Assembly: GCA_044349155.1 (NCBI GenBank)
Contig: JBIKRQ010000001.1
Coordinates: forward strand, 6,418-70,417
DNA length: 64,000 nucleotides
Source: Myxococcota bacterium
GTDB lineage: Bacteria > Myxococcota > UBA727 > VGSZ01
Direction of reading: 5' to 3'
The position numbers were made by a program, and so were the translations under genes. Under the pieces are notes generated by a model that worked only from the letters and a program-made list of their open reading frames with translations, did no database searches and was not told where the DNA came from. Shown here one piece after another: positions 48,101 to 53,726 of the stretch (within the stretch, counting starts at the first letter, position 1; the number at the start of each line of letters is the position of its first letter).

Positions 48101-51100
48101 GATAGGCGTGAAAGCCGTGGACGTCAGCGCCGACATCGTCGAGATCGCGTTCGAGGCCGTTGTTGGCACCGTCGTTGGCGATCGCCGCAGCAGCATTGCA
48201 GCGCCGTGGCGCGTCGACCTGCGCGCTCCGGCGACCACCGGCGCATCCACGGTCGTCATCCAGGCGACCGCCACCAGCCGCTCTGGTCAACAGCTGCGCC
48301 GCACACTCAACCTCACCGTTGTCGACGACCTCACAAACCCATCGCTCTCGCTGCTCGTGCTGCCTGATGGTCCAGTCGCTCCCGGCGCGCTCGTCACAAC
48401 CCGTGCGGTCAGCGATGCAGGCGCGGTCGAGGTCACCACCACCATCGCGATTGACGACGTGGTGCAGCTGACCGGCGGTGCCGAAACGGCCTTCGTTGTT
48501 CCCACGGTTGCCGCGGGCGCGCTGCTCCGTGTCGACGCCGTGGCGACCGACGCGGCGGGCAACCGTCGTCAGGCCACGGCGTCGCGCCGCATTGCCCCTG
48601 CCGACAGCACAACCACAACGTTGACCACCACGCCCGTCCGCCGCCTTGTCGCCGAGGCTGGTGTGCTCGTGGCGCACACCGCGAACGGTGCGCAGCAGCT
48701 CCTGCCGACGTCGTCGTCGTCGCAGCCAGGCGATGTCCTGGCGTTGTGGCGCGGCCAACGTGTGATCCGTGCGGCCAACGGGCTCGTCATCGGCGGCGTG
48801 CCGGTGGCGGTCGGCGCTGTCGACGACGTCAAAACGGGTCACGGGCGACTGCTCGCGCACACGTCGACTGGCCTTGTGGTTGAGATCGATCAAACCCTGA
48901 CCAGCACCGCGATCATCGATGCGAGCGCGCTGCTCGACGTTGGCGTCACCAGCATCCTCGTTGTGCGCGGCGGTCGCGTGCAGCGTGTGGTCGCGGGTGG
49001 CGTCACCACGCTGTTCACCACCACCGAAACGATCCGCGCAGGAGCGGCCATCGACGCCTCACGCGTGCTTGTGGTGACCGACACCTCGACAAGCCTCGTC
49101 GACGTCAGCGAAGGCGTTCTCGCCCGTGTCGACGTCGGTGGCGATCGGATCGTGACCGCGGGGGCGCGCGCCTTCGTGCTTGGCGATGCCTTGTATGAAC
49201 TCGACTTGCGTCGTCGCGCAGCGCTTGGCGTCCGCGCGGTTCGTGAAGCCGACAACATCAGCGACATCGCGGCGTTCGGCGACACCGTGTACTTCGCAGG
49301 CTCGACTGGCGTTCGCGCGCTCAAGTCGGCAGCGACAGACCACGACGTGTATGCGACCGTCTCGACCACAGCCCTCGGCGATGTTCCCGAGCAGATCGTC
49401 GACGTCGCCGGCGACCTGATCGTCCGCGGTGCGAAGTCGCAGCGGCTCGACATTGTCGGTGCGTCTCTTTCGGTGAGCGCCACCAACCTTCCCGTTGGCG
49501 TCGTCTCTTCGTCGACCGACCACGTCGTGTTCCTCACGAGCGAGGGCCGCTTGTCAGCCTGGCGTGCTGCGAGCAGCACCACGTGGACGCCGCTGTCACT
49601 GCCGGGTGTTGCCGCCACGACCACAGGCATCACAACGATGTCGTCGGGCCGTGGACGCGTCTGGTGGGGGCGCGGCAACGAACTCGGCACGGCGGCGTTT
49701 TCGACCTCGATCGCCTCGTTGACCACGCTGGACGGTACAATCGTCGACGTCGCGGCTGCTGGTGCGCAAGCGGCAGTGCTGTTGTCGTCGGGACGCGTCC
49801 TACTGATGGGCGTCGATCCGCGTGGTGCACCGCAGGTGCTCGCGTCAACAGCCGTGCCTGTGGGAACACGCGTGGCCTTCAATGGTGACGACGTGGTGGT
49901 CGCCAGCACTGGCACGCTCACCATCGTGCGCAACGTGAACAATGCACTGCAGCTCGCGACATCGGTGGCCCTCGTCGGCACGCCGCGTCGTGTGCGTCTG
50001 GCCGGGCATCAGGTCCTCGTTGCCGCAGGCAGCGCGGGTTTGCACGTCGTCGACACCGACACGTTCGCGGTCACCACCTTTGCAACGCCGCGCGCCCTCG
50101 ATGCCGCTGTCGTTGGCGATTCGCTCGTGGTGCTCGACGCCCTCGACGGCGTAACAGTGCGCCAGGCGCAGGTGGCCCGTGCGGCCGTGGCGGTCGTGGC
50201 GCCGTCGTCGGCCGACGTTCTCGCCGGCAGCATCGTGTCGGTGTTGGCCGACGCCCAACGCGCCGACGTCACGTCTGTCGAGCTGGTCATGGGGGCGACC
50301 CGTCAGTTGCTCGGCGACGCCGACGATGGCGACCTGCGTTTCAACGTGACCTTGCCGTCGTCGTTGAGCGTGGGCGCGCCGTTGCAGTTCGCGGTCACGA
50401 GCCAGAGTGCTGGCGGCACGAGCACGGCGTTGTCACCGGTACTCTACGTCGCAGCACCGCCGTCCACGCTCAGCGCGAGCTGGGTGGCGCCCGGCGACAC
50501 CGCCGTGCGACCTGGTGCCGACGTCGGGATCGCCATCGACGTCATTGGTGCTGCAGGCGTCGCCACGGGCCTCGTGACGGTCGATGACGTCGCAGTTGGT
50601 GAACTCGTCGACACCACAACGGCGGGCACCACGCGTCGCCTTGTCTCCACGATCACCGTACCGAGCGACGCCGTCGACACCATCGACGTTGATGTCGTCG
50701 TCACCGATGGAGCAGGGCGCTCGGCACAGGTCCGCCGTACCTGGAACGTCATCGCCGACACGGCGCCACCGTTCTCGCTCACGGGCTTGCCGAGCACGCT
50801 CAAAGCGGGGCCCGCCATCAACCTCGTGCAGCTCTCGGCGAGCGACGATGGCGTGTTCGCGTTGGAACTCGCGATGGGCTCGTCGGAGGCCGCGCTCACC
50901 ACGCTCACCCGTGTTGATGGCGTCGGCTCGGCGTCGTTGACTTGGGCGTTGGTGTTGCCGGCGAACAGCGATGGTCGAACAGTGGTCTTGCAGGGACGCG
51001 CGATCGACAGCGCCGGCCATGCGGCAACGCCAATCACCCGCAGCTACGTGGTGGCACCCGACGGTGTGGCTCCGGTTCCAACCGCAGGCGCGCCGTTGTT

Positions 51101-53726
51101 TGCGCGTGCTGGTGCCACGGTCACCCTGACGGCGTCGGCGTTCGACGAAGACGGCGACCTCTTGTCGCTCGACCTGTTCGCCAACGGCAGCCTCGTGAAA
51201 CACACCAACGGCGCCGCCATCGCCGAGCCATACACAGTCGGAAGCGACGACATCGTGGTCACTGTTGTCGCCACCGACCGTCGCACGCGTCCCGCACAGG
51301 TCACGCGCACCATCGATGTTCGCAGCTGCCCCGACCGCACGCTCACCGGCGCTGCGCCGTTGTCTGTGGAAGGCACCGTGCCCGCAGGCGACATCGTGTC
51401 GTCGAGCCGCTGCAGTCTTGGCGGGCTCGCCGACGAGACCTGGTCGTGGACCGTACCCCGCACCGGTCGCTACACGTTCGCGGCAGTGAACGCCCTCGGC
51501 GTCGTCGTTCGCGACGGTGGTTGTGGCGGCGCCGAGTTGGCCTGCAGCGGTCCCTCGAGCAGCAATCGCACGAGCCTGGCGCTCACGGCAGGCAGCGTGG
51601 TTGCGATCACCGTCGAGGACTTCGCCGGTGAGCGGTACACGCTCGACATCACGCGCACCGCAGAGTGCGGCGACGGGCTCGACAACGACAGCGACGGCGA
51701 GGCCGACTTCCCACGCGAGCCGGGCTGCATCGACCTGAACGACGACGACGAACTTGACCCGATCCCGCTGCCCGACTGCAGTGACGGCAACGACAACGAC
51801 AACGATGGTCACACCGACTTCGGGAGCGACCCGAGCTGTGTTGCTGCCAGCGGCACCGAGCACACCCCAGGCGACGTCTGTGCAGATGCACTGGTCATCG
51901 AGCCAAACGCGGTCACGCCAGCCGTGGTGCAGCTGTCACGAGCCGTCATGTCGTCGACCTTGTGTGAACCGGGACCCGACGCGTTTGTGCGGCTCGAACT
52001 GCCTGAGCAGTACCGCGCGAGGGTCGGCGTCGAGGCCTACCTGCCGGGTGGGGCGCAGGCTGACGTTGCGGTGTCCCTGGTGGAGACGTGCGGCACCACC
52101 GCGACGTGTCCTGCCGAGACCTTCGAGGTCAGCGGGTCACAGCTGATCGGCATCACGGGGACTGAAGACGTGAACCTGATCGTCGACGGCGTGCTGCTTG
52201 AAAACAGCCGCTGCGACAAGTTCAACGCGCTCGCGGCTCTTGCAGGCAACAGCAGCAACGTCGATGTGCGCCTCGCTTGCGACGAGGAGCTCGTCTGCCA
52301 AAACGACGGGCAAGGTGTCGACCGCTGCATCAAACCCGCGTGCAACGACGGCAAAGACAACGACCTCGACGGACTTACCGACTCGCCGAATGATCCAGGG
52401 TGCACCGGGCCTGACGACCTCGACGAGGGCGACCCGTGCGAGGCGGCCTACGCTGCACCCACGGTCACCATCACGGGCCAAACGACGACGGGCGGCTACG
52501 AAAACAGCGCAACGTTCACGATGAGCACGTCAGTGCCGGGCGCGTACCCGCAGTACGTGCTCGAGGTCAACGGCGTCGCGCAGCGCCCGCAGCGCTACAC
52601 CATGCCCGTGCGTCTCACGCAGTCCACAACAGTGCGCGGGCAGCTGTTGGTCGGCAGTCGCCTCGCATGCGCCGAGCACATCGAAGATGTCGTCGTCGTC
52701 GACACCAAGGCACCCACCGTGGTTTCAACGCTGCCGCGCAATGGCGCCATCGAGGCCGTTGCTCCGCAGCAGGTGGCGGCGCTCTCCGTCGCGTACTCCG
52801 AGTCGGTGCGCACGACTGGTGCGAGCACGTCCATTGTCGAAGCGGGCACAGACGGAGTCTTCAATACCGGCGACGACGTCACGCTCGAGCCATGTAACGC
52901 CACCGCCGCGGCCGCCGACGTGTTGCTTGCTCCATGCGACGTTGGTCCGGGGCGCTATCGGGCGACGGTGGCGGGTGTGACCGATGCGGCAGGGAACGTC
53001 GCTTCGAGCATTGAGTGGACGTTCACGGTCTCGCTCGACAGCGACGACGACGGCGTTCCGGACACGTATGAAGCGCTTCTCGGCCTTCAGCCCAACAACC
53101 CCGACAGCAACGGCAATGGCAAGCTCGACGGTCGCGAAGACTTCGACGGCGACGGCATCAGCAACGAGAGCGAGCTGGCGCTTGGCACCAACCCCGCCGT
53201 GGCAGACAGCGACGGCGACGGCAAGCCTGACGGCGACGAAGACAGTGACGGCGACGCACTCTCCGACGCTGCGGAACTCCTGGCAGGCACCAGGATCGAC
53301 GACCCCGACAGCGACAACGACGGCTTCCGCGACGGCATCGAGGTGGAGATGAAGTCCTCGCCCAACCTCGCGGCCAGCTACCCCAGCGGCTTCGTCGCTG
53401 CGAACGACCAGCCCACGGTGGTGCGCTTCGTCAACGAGTCAGGCGCTGCAGGCCTCGGCACGTTCGCTTCAACGGCGCAGCCAACGATTGTGCGATTCGT
53501 GGCCGATCCAAGTGCAGCCAACATGGGCACGTTCGCCTCTCGGCAGCAGCCAACGGTGGTGCGCTTCAGTTACGAACTCGGCGCTGCAGATACGGGCACA
53601 TTTGGCTCGCGTGCGCAGCCAACAGTGGTGCGGTTTGTCGTCGACGCAGCGGGGACGGGCAGTTTCGTGGCAACGCCACCGGTATGTGTAAACGGCAGCA
53701 ATCTCGACGGATTGCAGTGTAAATAA
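24150..53726 (+). CDS. giant secreted multidomain surface protein, ~9,858 aa
   Basis: Single uninterrupted frame. A GTG at 24150 is preceded by GGAGG (24137..24141) with a 6-nt spacer, and is followed by signal peptide ALATFVTTTIVAVLCCFSSATSA. Domains read by eye: two Big_2 (~25.0-25.5 kb), ~27 Ig-like ~100-aa repeats (25.5-33.6 kb), six to seven [IPT/TIG x2 - LVIVD propeller - SbsA-like Ig] super-modules (33.6-45.3 kb), more Ig-like and propeller-like regions (45.3-51.3 kb), three Cys-framed DxDxDG motifs inside pre-peptidase-C-terminal-like domains (51.3-52.4 kb), thrombospondin-type-3 repeats (53.0-53.3 kb), and four ~22-aa C-terminal repeats ending in a Cys-x10-Cys terminus. TAA stop. Confidence 0.8.
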   Translation: MSDRHAGRGALATFVTTTIVAVLCCFSSATSAEPVGVSVRQPIRVGSSTTVELSITSSGAQVAVSAHGVDAGGAFAQVDGVTTAVDASGVARLSLPLLRAFPEGGRLDVDIVDIDTSGTRSPAVRRTFDAKAAGPRFDAEPAVEISAGGVGVRLSHPTDVVLSDVRIILASAEALRGVNGDLQRAAALSVLSVGRVTTPTRVGATSTSSFFPLLESRSLPADGVALVEATLSDAFGRTSSRSLVSFVDTGALDQLLSLSIGQGPVLLSAGFGQRLALPVTGHFLIAGDVDLRGAESGVVYTSSDIEVVAVTSDGTLVARNNGTATVTARFGSVEASVDVIVDSTAELVSLAIAAADGGPGATIELPRADVSQRVRLLATLSDDRIVDVSDASTIWASSAPGIVRADPGALLVARAPGEATVTATLGTLQGSARVVVRDGEPTITVSAAQAVAGEAFEVTAYPADDIGVERVTFFINGVPANVLEAAPWTIQLQAPPRPGAQITVAAVVTDTAQQPTRSSDVNVSVVAAPVPSAVALSFVKPTTSSFLVAGQGTTLTVSGGSQRGLQAVRFYADGTLIGTSTAARVVLEPGVATAEPVQRVLWEVGYTPATSLAGRGVVLRAVGVEASGAETAAAVVAVRVQADTTAAIVMAAPLASPVQATVGRVMTFSGTIVDDTLALGAQLTLVVDERDIASTNIVATTTDGSIAGTAPFAVRFVPTAIRHEVSIRVTDTNNKVTSRSFVVLTTTELPPEVLILTPVVGASFAVGQLVQLSAAIVDESASTTTVQWFVNGSPVATTDPTGLTASFRAGVAQVGGPVTIEALATDDTGNPRRAARDISVVPDTKVPVVNIDSSLSPSVVVNNDLLVTVTGQDEGGIDRFELLVDDVLVASTNAPGQAGDLDVAHLLVPRAQLARLGAHTLKARAFDKAQNPGASPDVAISVVADGPPSVAIANNRRVVTGSTFTLEATASDDTRVVEVELQCNGVTTVRTAPPYTAPCTAPLAPGPLEVVVTARDATHATTASKTLAVVADTKEPLVSIAPTSLSPHFVGRPLTVEVTASDDTAVASISLTLDDVVLGPPLRRRIGLYEVASWSLPGATFANAGQRLLVAKVVDSSGNPTERSSTLLVVTDRAPVVTITEPAGRSIHKEGDDVTIAWSASDDDGLVGAVGVSGGVFQGVLPTTTTPTSLRGQQVTVVQGPTRSAEASVGIAAKDTAGQVTIKTVDLTIRADLEPPQATLVQPALSATPIVVYAGGALGMRVEGTDDVRIQRVEVAIDGVPLASLDRISEVLETTRFPDPFQPGQTTTSKLRRSVFGEVVSLAGVAQGPHTLKTTVYDLANPVTLREVQIDVRPFTDDQKPVATIVLSPTPDTCVINATIDVRVTATDNVRVSSMTATIGGEQREVIGGDATFPYVVAGPVGARRSFSLVARDAAGNQGTASASCLVVADAAPTVAVTTPASGDVVYPMETVNVSSRVFDDRGGTRTFAFAATALPSVVGGAVAVGISSAQRSLAIDAGGGGADVSVSAGVVTVVPRGAVGEAPLRVTFDAPSRCSIHSVWRTRLGADSSALATFVEQAEALAVEHDCRGSVELDVPHNDIDVVAVQVDFKDGAQVEVGYVDRVPSSVSYADGADALAVALRGATVLAPTTTTVSAPLRIPAAVSLFVGTVAIDVVGQSTLGVSSIFVEEDETAPTVTIGSPVAGRSFVEGYELPIEVSSVDRLATIDVSVLVNSTIELPARFTAGSAWAAVHLPSVLKQERTLSMVATAVDEAGNRSTSAPVVVNIVPDARPAIAFTELRSPVQSYDEAALSGGVVDILQGQRVAVAATCTDDIGVQTVSATIDGTDLPLTRSGSSVQMAWDVPLGADGTPHVLVVRAGDGTAFTERSLVLVALVPKAPVLGIVAPAAEQPLPEGSIRFVVDAIAADDTEVAAVDVLLDGQLALTIDRGEALSIGEVDDAGVAKATDAATQMVLNEMDPEHRDARSVLRFGGTIDLLPGFLVAGERSSFVVTVVARDIEGYETSAERTVVLVDDQTPPHVVVYRPGLAAAVHENALLEVNFDARDDVFVAAVEVRAGDLTAAFDDLEIVETIGGFDLDSVRTAEGNDVVFGPFTVDVPAPAKAPDVEDFVVAIVATDVNGLRSAPEYIVVSLKPDTRPNLSLDVSTTAVVGTTLPVHADAFDDVGVTQVELTVNGLSFQVLQRPPWTFLVPLTAVGTISLDATAMDSAGHVTPLAAPVAVEVKEDTAPAVRVSSPQNHDIRVEGRPLLVQVAANDDVEVAGVSLNVVGLPQPLRLASAAAPWVFSIPLPFGSAGRQLLLTPTATDSHGTSTTGETIQVDVVADRAAPSVAFLAPADNSRLVGGRPFEIDIDADDNVGVQRVEVVALIGGTPTPLPSIAAPPWRTVWMVPTAVGPVVLRATAFDASNNATPTEVLVTVDDDTKPLVSLVGPAKVTAGVPFSLTAEPKDDTGIAYVSFRAAYGTAEPVEIGRRYQQPHTLIHTVPKALIGTAVTFSVVAIDDAQQPGDAAIEPLVVQADTPPTVAVRRPQRDTFVFSGRSMQLEVDASDLETNVAEVSFFVNGRRVATRTAPAGLPGLSHTYVAPFMVPVGVGNRQFSMWATATDSSGNPAMSEVVTFGSIVDTVRPDAALVSPASLDVLTAGTPTTLQATALDNASIQKVAFEVGGSLVGEATVPVVSVAGQPQYEFDWRVPTQPGQLVEVVADASDPTGNHRRTAPVSFEVGLAPATSVPMNSVSVAAITRDGFVAAFNTVPRPTIELKRVGTSTTTSLASIALGDQETVQALATDGRLLAAAVAVAGTTTLRVYDVGLPTVPVLRSTLALNEADVAGMLLDDGILHIASPSRGVTRVSLRTPSAPLRLDTTPTVGSAHALAIAANRWLLVASDGGLRIHDLRHPRLLEVAFVPVPGGARSVAVDGNRAYVGGADVSGSLCAIDLADINVPYIVSIGTHRPRRADHLSKGLAFVDVEGQLVISVADVIDQDARAVKGLVNVATTNNPTAVLYRANQPRSLTEAATSHARPVGIANGRIVSFAGDSLQTFVVPALTIVGTTPGDTALAATDAVVSVRFNTAVVSSSVTATSFAVHAGDLTGPTVPGEVRVVGDLVTFTPASTLDEAAGYTVVLKGGASGISGEQTHLLADHSFRFQTATSSSDAPTIALVSPAAGTVLGGTEVMIAGAGFQPGATVAFGVEASPAVRFVSPGELRAVTPPGPSGPVAITVVNPDQQEDSVLAGWLYLDGVSVGGVAPSSGHLAGGDDVELTGSGFAPGMAVWFDDQQASNVRVESSGRALVTTPPHAFGPADIVVVVEGEQAVQPAGFFYSDLSVSARVSRYEPAIDGSVRPVNKLPGRSLALTAGPADDVVVLGAAAINTAAANIATLLSTSRAGAVNIVDPAGPVIVGGIDLPLPYAPTSIAVSRDGSTAWVLATGATLVDLELAGEGRTALFVFDLTMPTAPQLATSLQVSRTGTGAGTLALIDDVLFAALGSDGVGVFSTAVPTSPTYLGAVQGFVVAGRSRDLVVDHVAADGPRLLAADALAAVSVVLDTTRAGLPVLRATGASFTAAASRADFIWRVVPAGRDATLLQRLAGQPTWAVQDTRGAAIAGTRASHANLLASTSAVASSGEGGGALELFGAPDAAMKHIDAVSLYPAAMLTGVQIAGGRAVVAVQSSVTANERELSNDALVIVDLPFPLVVATSPAANATSVSPATSIDLTFSRDIDNVVATLVARDGSTDGQAVDVSVSTSGKVVHLQPLQSLATSTNYEVKLTSAMCCARATLPAPFTFRFTTGTVATSSEPVIAALAPRTGSVDGGAAVTITGLGFEVGAVVTVGGEVATVEHVDATQMRFVTPRGVAGAATVVVTNPSGAQATRVGGHIYLDNLAIDALEPARGSVEGGTEVLVRGRGFALDSDVTVHFGATPARTVRVLGPTLLRVVTPGGTLGSVDVTVDSGGQRAIAAAAFTYDAPTANSVEVGGVVSDMALVGDYLVVAAGTEGLKVLDTTGRYRFGPLAGTLIPPERRSRLVDENGDRIDDRVVGTWSSASHAVRRLARAPGHGGDRLLVGATADSLVRVFELDLSAPEAPALQHEELVTGAKVLGDIDLDGERLLVATDVGVVSYDVSGAPFEVARTATSTTALAVTGGVGAFGNSAGATLFDGHAPVPNGGTAFAVNTRALDVAADGSVVAATPTGVAVFGFGMPLTSSLFATGAYDIDLVNGIAHVASGSDGVRVFAVDRGRLESLYAIAPASSGSVEVVATDGHQIASARRADGRWFIDWTLHGDLMLTSSSIAPDAVLEHDPSPITLSFSRPLDASTVPLSTTLTIGNERISIAVAGGSLAAPVSTLSIVAGTLPSGGVGELRIAGLRSVDGRTLRHDIVIPVTTARRAGVAPVLSTVSPRLISTKGDTVVVLSGQAFDEPVVTIGGFEATVVSSEAREIVVQAPEGPRGLADVQVTNASGLHDELVGGCVYVEPIAVDSATPRFLNPLGGTLVTIRGHGFMRAGLEAPTGPTVFFRGVPAVQVITRSDTLLQAVAPAGTFGPVPVVVRDAASKRAEGPVLGYGLTSTHSERVSGTTVSSIDIDESQPGYAFAAGGASNGGNRTPRPFVGPLMGAGTIPTTTSAIGFDISGSNGPKTALAAFSALSDNPAEENLLADLVIAVLSFRTPRTVALPDVDLMPDSHDTLVTGDRVLVANGEAGLVSLAMTGEGTTASFFRESSTQAQLARRVALRGHTALVTGIEMGVDPPPDDQDGCNGTKPAKNQDGTVQIVDLRQANDPVTVGALAGGNAIDVAVARAGHAAVLSSSLKGVLYCPPSAAQIASGNPLPQPPEWSLDVLPGHNTWNQSWARIDVLGAVSTNAVLKAQLSLTEDAADVVWITDRVLAVAVESGVRFYDVGARLTQVAFVPFDETLMAVPGKPNALELVGDVLFVASRGGGVVLIDVRKPTVPDVLSAGNTENAIDVDVFGDRAYVAGGASLVELAMPFMLATGSAPARDERVAPTAAPLRVYLNRPVAGFAPSTVVLTGPAGRVEIDVTTERDNARERHAVVATPRAPLAPETSYELTVGTTLTDTQGGRLLLPWTTSFTTGPAGTLQPSIDEVRPLFASAGDVVTVSGTNLTGVKHVRIGGVAASFDIVDGALAVVVPQLAAGSHDVEVVDAGGPTATEPQGLLVLAPLEPATVSPAHGPLAGGTRVTLTFPRASLAPGSSITIGDVAGVAVDVDTLMVVTFATPQRDLAGLVRVAVTRPGEAPVVVGSFAYETPEQLSIDLPGYPDRVASDIALRATRLFVASDASGYFGADIMDISLPERPLRRGSLVTTAPVHGLDVRDDLLALAVDERGVQLVDVFDENAPFVVREVPVFGRATDVRFREQSLWVTTSVDGAAGGFLQEVSLTSQPTTLRAIEFDEDVLAVDEGLDGLAVLTSDITATGADGLTLRLLDANGATTNSIAVDAGVASVADRVRSRLLLLPGRAYVTIGNQVQVYSTSPLTLLETKVVGVRTAGLTRQGALVYVASAAEATLTALEVSRFQVFNVAPRGLAQASTAVSAEVSQPISARSLSPTSMPVTSAFGAVDGTHEVTFDVRGAVATFTPQGLLPARVTASLTTDLRSFSAEPLATPVSWSFTTVDGDQPTITSVTPHTVSIDAPFLLAIDGSGFNEASRVFIGDQEWPATLVGDGHLEVDLEGLGNEGLYAVEVVDASGLRARRDAAIRVDDNLTLIALSPTSGPLMGTNTVTLTGRGFRPGMAVVFGATASFLVSVDSSRSARAIVPPGTSGLVDVTVQVTQEQAQLPAAYRYGSGAVATVTSPPLADVALHGTDIWTAAGGALTREGVTIGQPRGMIVGWDASEPNALRQYQGVIDVGGSGVEHLVVVDDLLYAAAGTAGVQLVDISVTDRAAVVATAAGDGAVHDVVVRDDIVLAADDAGISQLLRTPAGLVALGRVSIAGGVRRLAVARNLVVASAADGTLLVVDARRGDLRVLGRLPLGSAATDIEVDGNRAFVALGAQGMVQIVDLTEPTAPAPIGTVVLQGDAEAWDVDVTMDTILVAAGAGAIQRFSVPVGAQPAWVETLSLNDDVRSFERRGQRLFAATVYPLRAGERLAAGTPLTVSDKLSGAVVTVSTEHLEVLELNPTTIDPIAPNAALTVALGEQLSPSSRAGISLHTDAGALEPLRTQRVDATRILVDVSTGSTLPAGQAVQLTLAGLKGLSTSTQPVTQRATWQTGTRPNESAPAITEVSPAVAPLAGAPLHIRGAALPADATVTIGGAVAVAMSSSRADDLVVLAPAGVEGAATVEVTTPGGLVARRWGGVRYLRSPTITTVQPTSQPFNSRGAVVVKGTGLSSASVVRFGAVPARTTSQQADGSLLVTIPDDVIGDVSVTVANPGDVAIATAATAFTFTLTSHSTIPVDGQRVAARGRRLAIADATRVHLYDTTVPTAVRELATVTLGASALDLELDDDSIVAVTSSALYRWSLARCTPSSCILGAPEVTTYVGGNHVAVGTADDRLVMAVTDGDEATLFASIDGVFDVVASTVLEAPIAELAVTTAGIVALTDATPASLLLLDSTNGLLDVIERRELTGDAVALSTFGTQVAALTTTGFVVVDVDGAIAPVSAGTAVGGSIALHGPVLAIAGANTSLFDVTTSTARHLSFTPTWSRGVAFSNGTLVALSSTAAVLALPYAVPASSTPLPGGALVVGEPVTIALGTEAPVTTVLGGFVNLGVAQHQLTTASSFGAVANVPVVGSFAASVQFGAWPVNNSAFGSPWRFGWHAVDGVPHTLTSVTPDHGPQAGGTVVALSGQGIGTATRLEVGGDVVAFTPTLEGIEFVTPAARAAGPVDIVVTTPTGTLRADAAFAYIAPLTLSTITPAVVDNLGGSVELRGSGFTRGARVTIDNVAVAATFVSSTALQVAVPAGPNAALAVTVTQPGVASVTRSDLLQRDDRHGPVVVNLLPADRPVSPTSSLQLVFDEPVGVPLSPIVLAGVSLAPQRSSVDPRVVELNNATLPSSGSMNLVVRAQRDLLGNAGTEKAIVFRVQDVEKPTLSLRRQGAAVVDGTPFARGLPWTFSLNVNDDSHVVSSLVVTIDGVVVANRTGVSDQTLEFTWAWPQATIADSTSHIAITAIDAAHNQRDLGVNVRVTADNPPAAPTIVFSTASPQDAEPVVVDVASIDDIAIARLVLTVDGQVVSDGSNQTTSVRQRFSAGDHVITARATDNGGQTSPLASRTISVSADTTPPQISLLAPVATARLPKDRQVTIDLDVTDTGGVGSVELRTAGVSRTLSAPPWRFDVMPDSSTLQVDVTALDTRGNHNTRQFTWQTTEAPGSLRLTSPAGDARINEHSTLTIAGTASAATVRVDAFGETVEVAVDGGRFATTRLAPTVVEDEVAVISVGDGRNTAARTVRIVNVDEATGELHVLRWPNGAPLLAGTRLDVAQTVSVPATPSTSIVQDAVVIGSGDSTASATTTSDAHDVTIVAAAITTAAGTALSAAENVAVTPWLTTESNNVIEFDDRTAEVVTVDADTSGATTLALGRTSGGRALLANASAHIDFAGDPVGLVSAGDAVLVVINHQGSTQVQRRRRDTLALTGTTTIAGTTNAVVEAVGLVALGQDDGLVVIRPDGTELQRHVLGAITALASTGNKVTAVVDAADVVDLDVLTGTVSAVAPATATWPQPIDAVAGAGTTLCVLGGANATDIVCADNAAVELPLPARSLSRFGPHLLVHGLADTSLLVGGAAVFSTEDEGVVVSGDRWFFTRNNTVHMRRLHRAAPASVELSGTIPTTMAATTTAASGLTVSSNSDVVDVVTVDVFVDGGRVARAFNGVPALPSIAAGAHEVTICATSVSGAQSCRNSTTTFEPTAPAITAWRVATTATAGGVVNLEFVLQGAVAAVVVDVNGVDQGTGTPLQQREVVMPSAAGSVVVGAVPVAADGTRGARVTSTIAVVAATSAPTFELVRDGSGAIAEGTPIGVKAVDVSADIVEIAFEAVVGTVVGDRRSSIAAPWRVDLRAPATTGASTVVIQATATSRSGQQLRRTLNLTVVDDLTNPSLSLLVLPDGPVAPGALVTTRAVSDAGAVEVTTTIAIDDVVQLTGGAETAFVVPTVAAGALLRVDAVATDAAGNRRQATASRRIAPADSTTTTLTTTPVRRLVAEAGVLVAHTANGAQQLLPTSSSSQPGDVLALWRGQRVIRAANGLVIGGVPVAVGAVDDVKTGHGRLLAHTSTGLVVEIDQTLTSTAIIDASALLDVGVTSILVVRGGRVQRVVAGGVTTLFTTTETIRAGAAIDASRVLVVTDTSTSLVDVSEGVLARVDVGGDRIVTAGARAFVLGDALYELDLRRRAALGVRAVREADNISDIAAFGDTVYFAGSTGVRALKSAATDHDVYATVSTTALGDVPEQIVDVAGDLIVRGAKSQRLDIVGASLSVSATNLPVGVVSSSTDHVVFLTSEGRLSAWRAASSTTWTPLSLPGVAATTTGITTMSSGRGRVWWGRGNELGTAAFSTSIASLTTLDGTIVDVAAAGAQAAVLLSSGRVLLMGVDPRGAPQVLASTAVPVGTRVAFNGDDVVVASTGTLTIVRNVNNALQLATSVALVGTPRRVRLAGHQVLVAAGSAGLHVVDTDTFAVTTFATPRALDAAVVGDSLVVLDALDGVTVRQAQVARAAVAVVAPSSADVLAGSIVSVLADAQRADVTSVELVMGATRQLLGDADDGDLRFNVTLPSSLSVGAPLQFAVTSQSAGGTSTALSPVLYVAAPPSTLSASWVAPGDTAVRPGADVGIAIDVIGAAGVATGLVTVDDVAVGELVDTTTAGTTRRLVSTITVPSDAVDTIDVDVVVTDGAGRSAQVRRTWNVIADTAPPFSLTGLPSTLKAGPAINLVQLSASDDGVFALELAMGSSEAALTTLTRVDGVGSASLTWALVLPANSDGRTVVLQGRAIDSAGHAATPITRSYVVAPDGVAPVPTAGAPLFARAGATVTLTASAFDEDGDLLSLDLFANGSLVKHTNGAAIAEPYTVGSDDIVVTVVATDRRTRPAQVTRTIDVRSCPDRTLTGAAPLSVEGTVPAGDIVSSSRCSLGGLADETWSWTVPRTGRYTFAAVNALGVVVRDGGCGGAELACSGPSSSNRTSLALTAGSVVAITVEDFAGERYTLDITRTAECGDGLDNDSDGEADFPREPGCIDLNDDDELDPIPLPDCSDGNDNDNDGHTDFGSDPSCVAASGTEHTPGDVCADALVIEPNAVTPAVVQLSRAVMSSTLCEPGPDAFVRLELPEQYRARVGVEAYLPGGAQADVAVSLVETCGTTATCPAETFEVSGSQLIGITGTEDVNLIVDGVLLENSRCDKFNALAALAGNSSNVDVRLACDEELVCQNDGQGVDRCIKPACNDGKDNDLDGLTDSPNDPGCTGPDDLDEGDPCEAAYAAPTVTITGQTTTGGYENSATFTMSTSVPGAYPQYVLEVNGVAQRPQRYTMPVRLTQSTTVRGQLLVGSRLACAEHIEDVVVVDTKAPTVVSTLPRNGAIEAVAPQQVAALSVAYSESVRTTGASTSIVEAGTDGVFNTGDDVTLEPCNATAAAADVLLAPCDVGPGRYRATVAGVTDAAGNVASSIEWTFTVSLDSDDDGVPDTYEALLGLQPNNPDSNGNGKLDGREDFDGDGISNESELALGTNPAVADSDGDGKPDGDEDSDGDALSDAAELLAGTRIDDPDSDNDGFRDGIEVEMKSSPNLAASYPSGFVAANDQPTVVRFVNESGAAGLGTFASTAQPTIVRFVADPSAANMGTFASRQQPTVVRFSYELGAADTGTFGSRAQPTVVRFVVDAAGTGSFVATPPVCVNGSNLDGLQCK

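Follow-up and report, generated by a model that had tools for sequence, protein, structure and literature searches.

The giant secreted surface protein encoded in the 64,000-nucleotide window analysed here ends in a conserved tail of tandem beta-strand repeats, followed 12 bases downstream by the gene for a Gly-rich secreted protein. The tail probably serves for docking, with the Gly-rich protein as the partner. The open reading frame (23976-53726) encodes 9,916 aa, and its C-terminal part comprises, in order, two PPC-like domains together with three Cys-framed loops, a Big_5 domain and a TSP3 region, four repeats, a C-x10-C loop, and the stop codon. A sequence-only reading had described an unusual C-terminal module here, and the module is real: every element that it listed was present in the translation of 50700-53726.

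The repeat tail is conserved and old

The tail occupies the final ~100 residues of the giant protein and consists of four conserved 23-residue beta-strand repeats with the consensus QPT[VI]VRF...G[TS]F. The units start at 53409, 53478, 53547, and 53616; each is exactly 23 aa long except the last, which has 22. As had been described, the repeats end in a C-x10-C loop (VCVNGSNLDGLQCK, 53682-53723), which directly follows unit 4 and precedes the TAA stop codon (53724-53726). In a BLOSUM autocorrelation, the 23-residue period far exceeded chance (z=16, reached by 0/1000 shuffles). The units share 55-70% identity with one another at the protein level and 64-73% at the DNA level, and TRF found no DNA tandem repeat in the tail; the repeats are therefore old.

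Purifying selection acts on the tail (dN/dS about 0.2), which is kept at five orthologous loci (P0121, L025, L028, L033, and L034). Its absence from orthologues of the giant protein would have spoken against the proposed novel tail, and all five carry it.

Scans against Pfam and NCBIfam at E<=1 returned no relevant match to the tail. The MYXO-CTERM, PEP-CTERM, and LPXTG types of sorting signal have a hydrophobic helix and a basic end, whereas the tail has neither. It matches no known C-terminal sorting family or signal, which supports the earlier view that it does not look like the MYXO-CTERM, PEP-CTERM, LPXTG, or T9SS type.

A lower GC content had also been pointed out for the last 300 nt of the open reading frame. 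The drop is real but modest (0.603 vs 0.666 for the whole frame). The fall in GC3 starts at ~53550 and extends through the entire downstream gene, with values of 0.54-0.68 compared to 0.8-0.9 in the flanks.

The calcium-binding part upstream of the tail is ordinary

The Cys-framed loops follow the pattern CxDGxDNDxDGxxD...PxC, and the entire protein contains only three copies: CGDGLDNDSDGEADFPREPGC (51666-51728), CSDGNDNDNDGHTDFGSDPSC (51777-51839), and CNDGKDNDLDGLTDSPNDPGC (52341-52403). Their spacing had been given as ~110-190 aa, but measured start to start it is 37 aa and 188 aa; moreover, the motifs lie on either side of the PPC-like domains rather than inside them. The DxDxDG runs at 53037-53333 matched Pfam TSP3_bac (E=5.7e-7, 29.7 bits; cut-off, 25 bits). 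The PPC-like domains gave no direct Pfam match in the giant protein itself; their assignment is supported indirectly by homologues P0130-P0135, which carry PF04151 (PPC), and in P0130 this match falls inside the stretch that aligns to domain B of the window protein. Because the Cys-framed loops are TSP3-type loops closed by a disulfide, and because the homologues carry a Pfam PPC domain, this part of the protein is ordinary.

The tail and its Gly-rich neighbour

The Gly-rich gene lies 12-14 nt after the tail in every orthologue, so the co-occurrence that the sequence-only reading had proposed as a check was found throughout. Its product is one of at least 968 proteins in a family that lacks annotation, and the AF2 model of the product (pLDDT 84) had no match in the PDB. 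Neighbouring genes often encode RHS toxins and cohesin/dockerin proteins.

A similar arrangement occurs at ~16 distant loci, which come from Verrucomicrobiota, Lysobacterales, Sumerlaeota, and Methylomirabilota. There, the product of the gene immediately upstream of a Gly-rich family member closes with Ca-binding repeats and then 3-14 tandem repeats, each 19-25 aa long, which reach the C-terminus. The repeat sequences vary from lineage to lineage, and no homology between lineages was demonstrable at the level of the unit. These tails appear to be functional equivalents of the tail of the giant protein.

The tail had been suggested to be a novel Ca-dependent anchoring or partner-binding structure. 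Partner binding is favoured, since the Gly-rich protein accompanies the tail in every orthologue and equivalent tails appear to exist in distant phyla; in the best reading, the beta-repeat tail would dock the Gly-rich protein by direct binding. Calcium dependence, however, cannot be assigned to the tail because an acidic Ca motif is absent from it; the elements that bind Ca, namely the TSP3 runs and the Cys-framed loops, lie upstream of it. The module is not confined to Myxococcota, and together with the Gly-rich gene the tail seems to make up a two-gene unit that lacks annotation and is found repeatedly, in several bacterial phyla.

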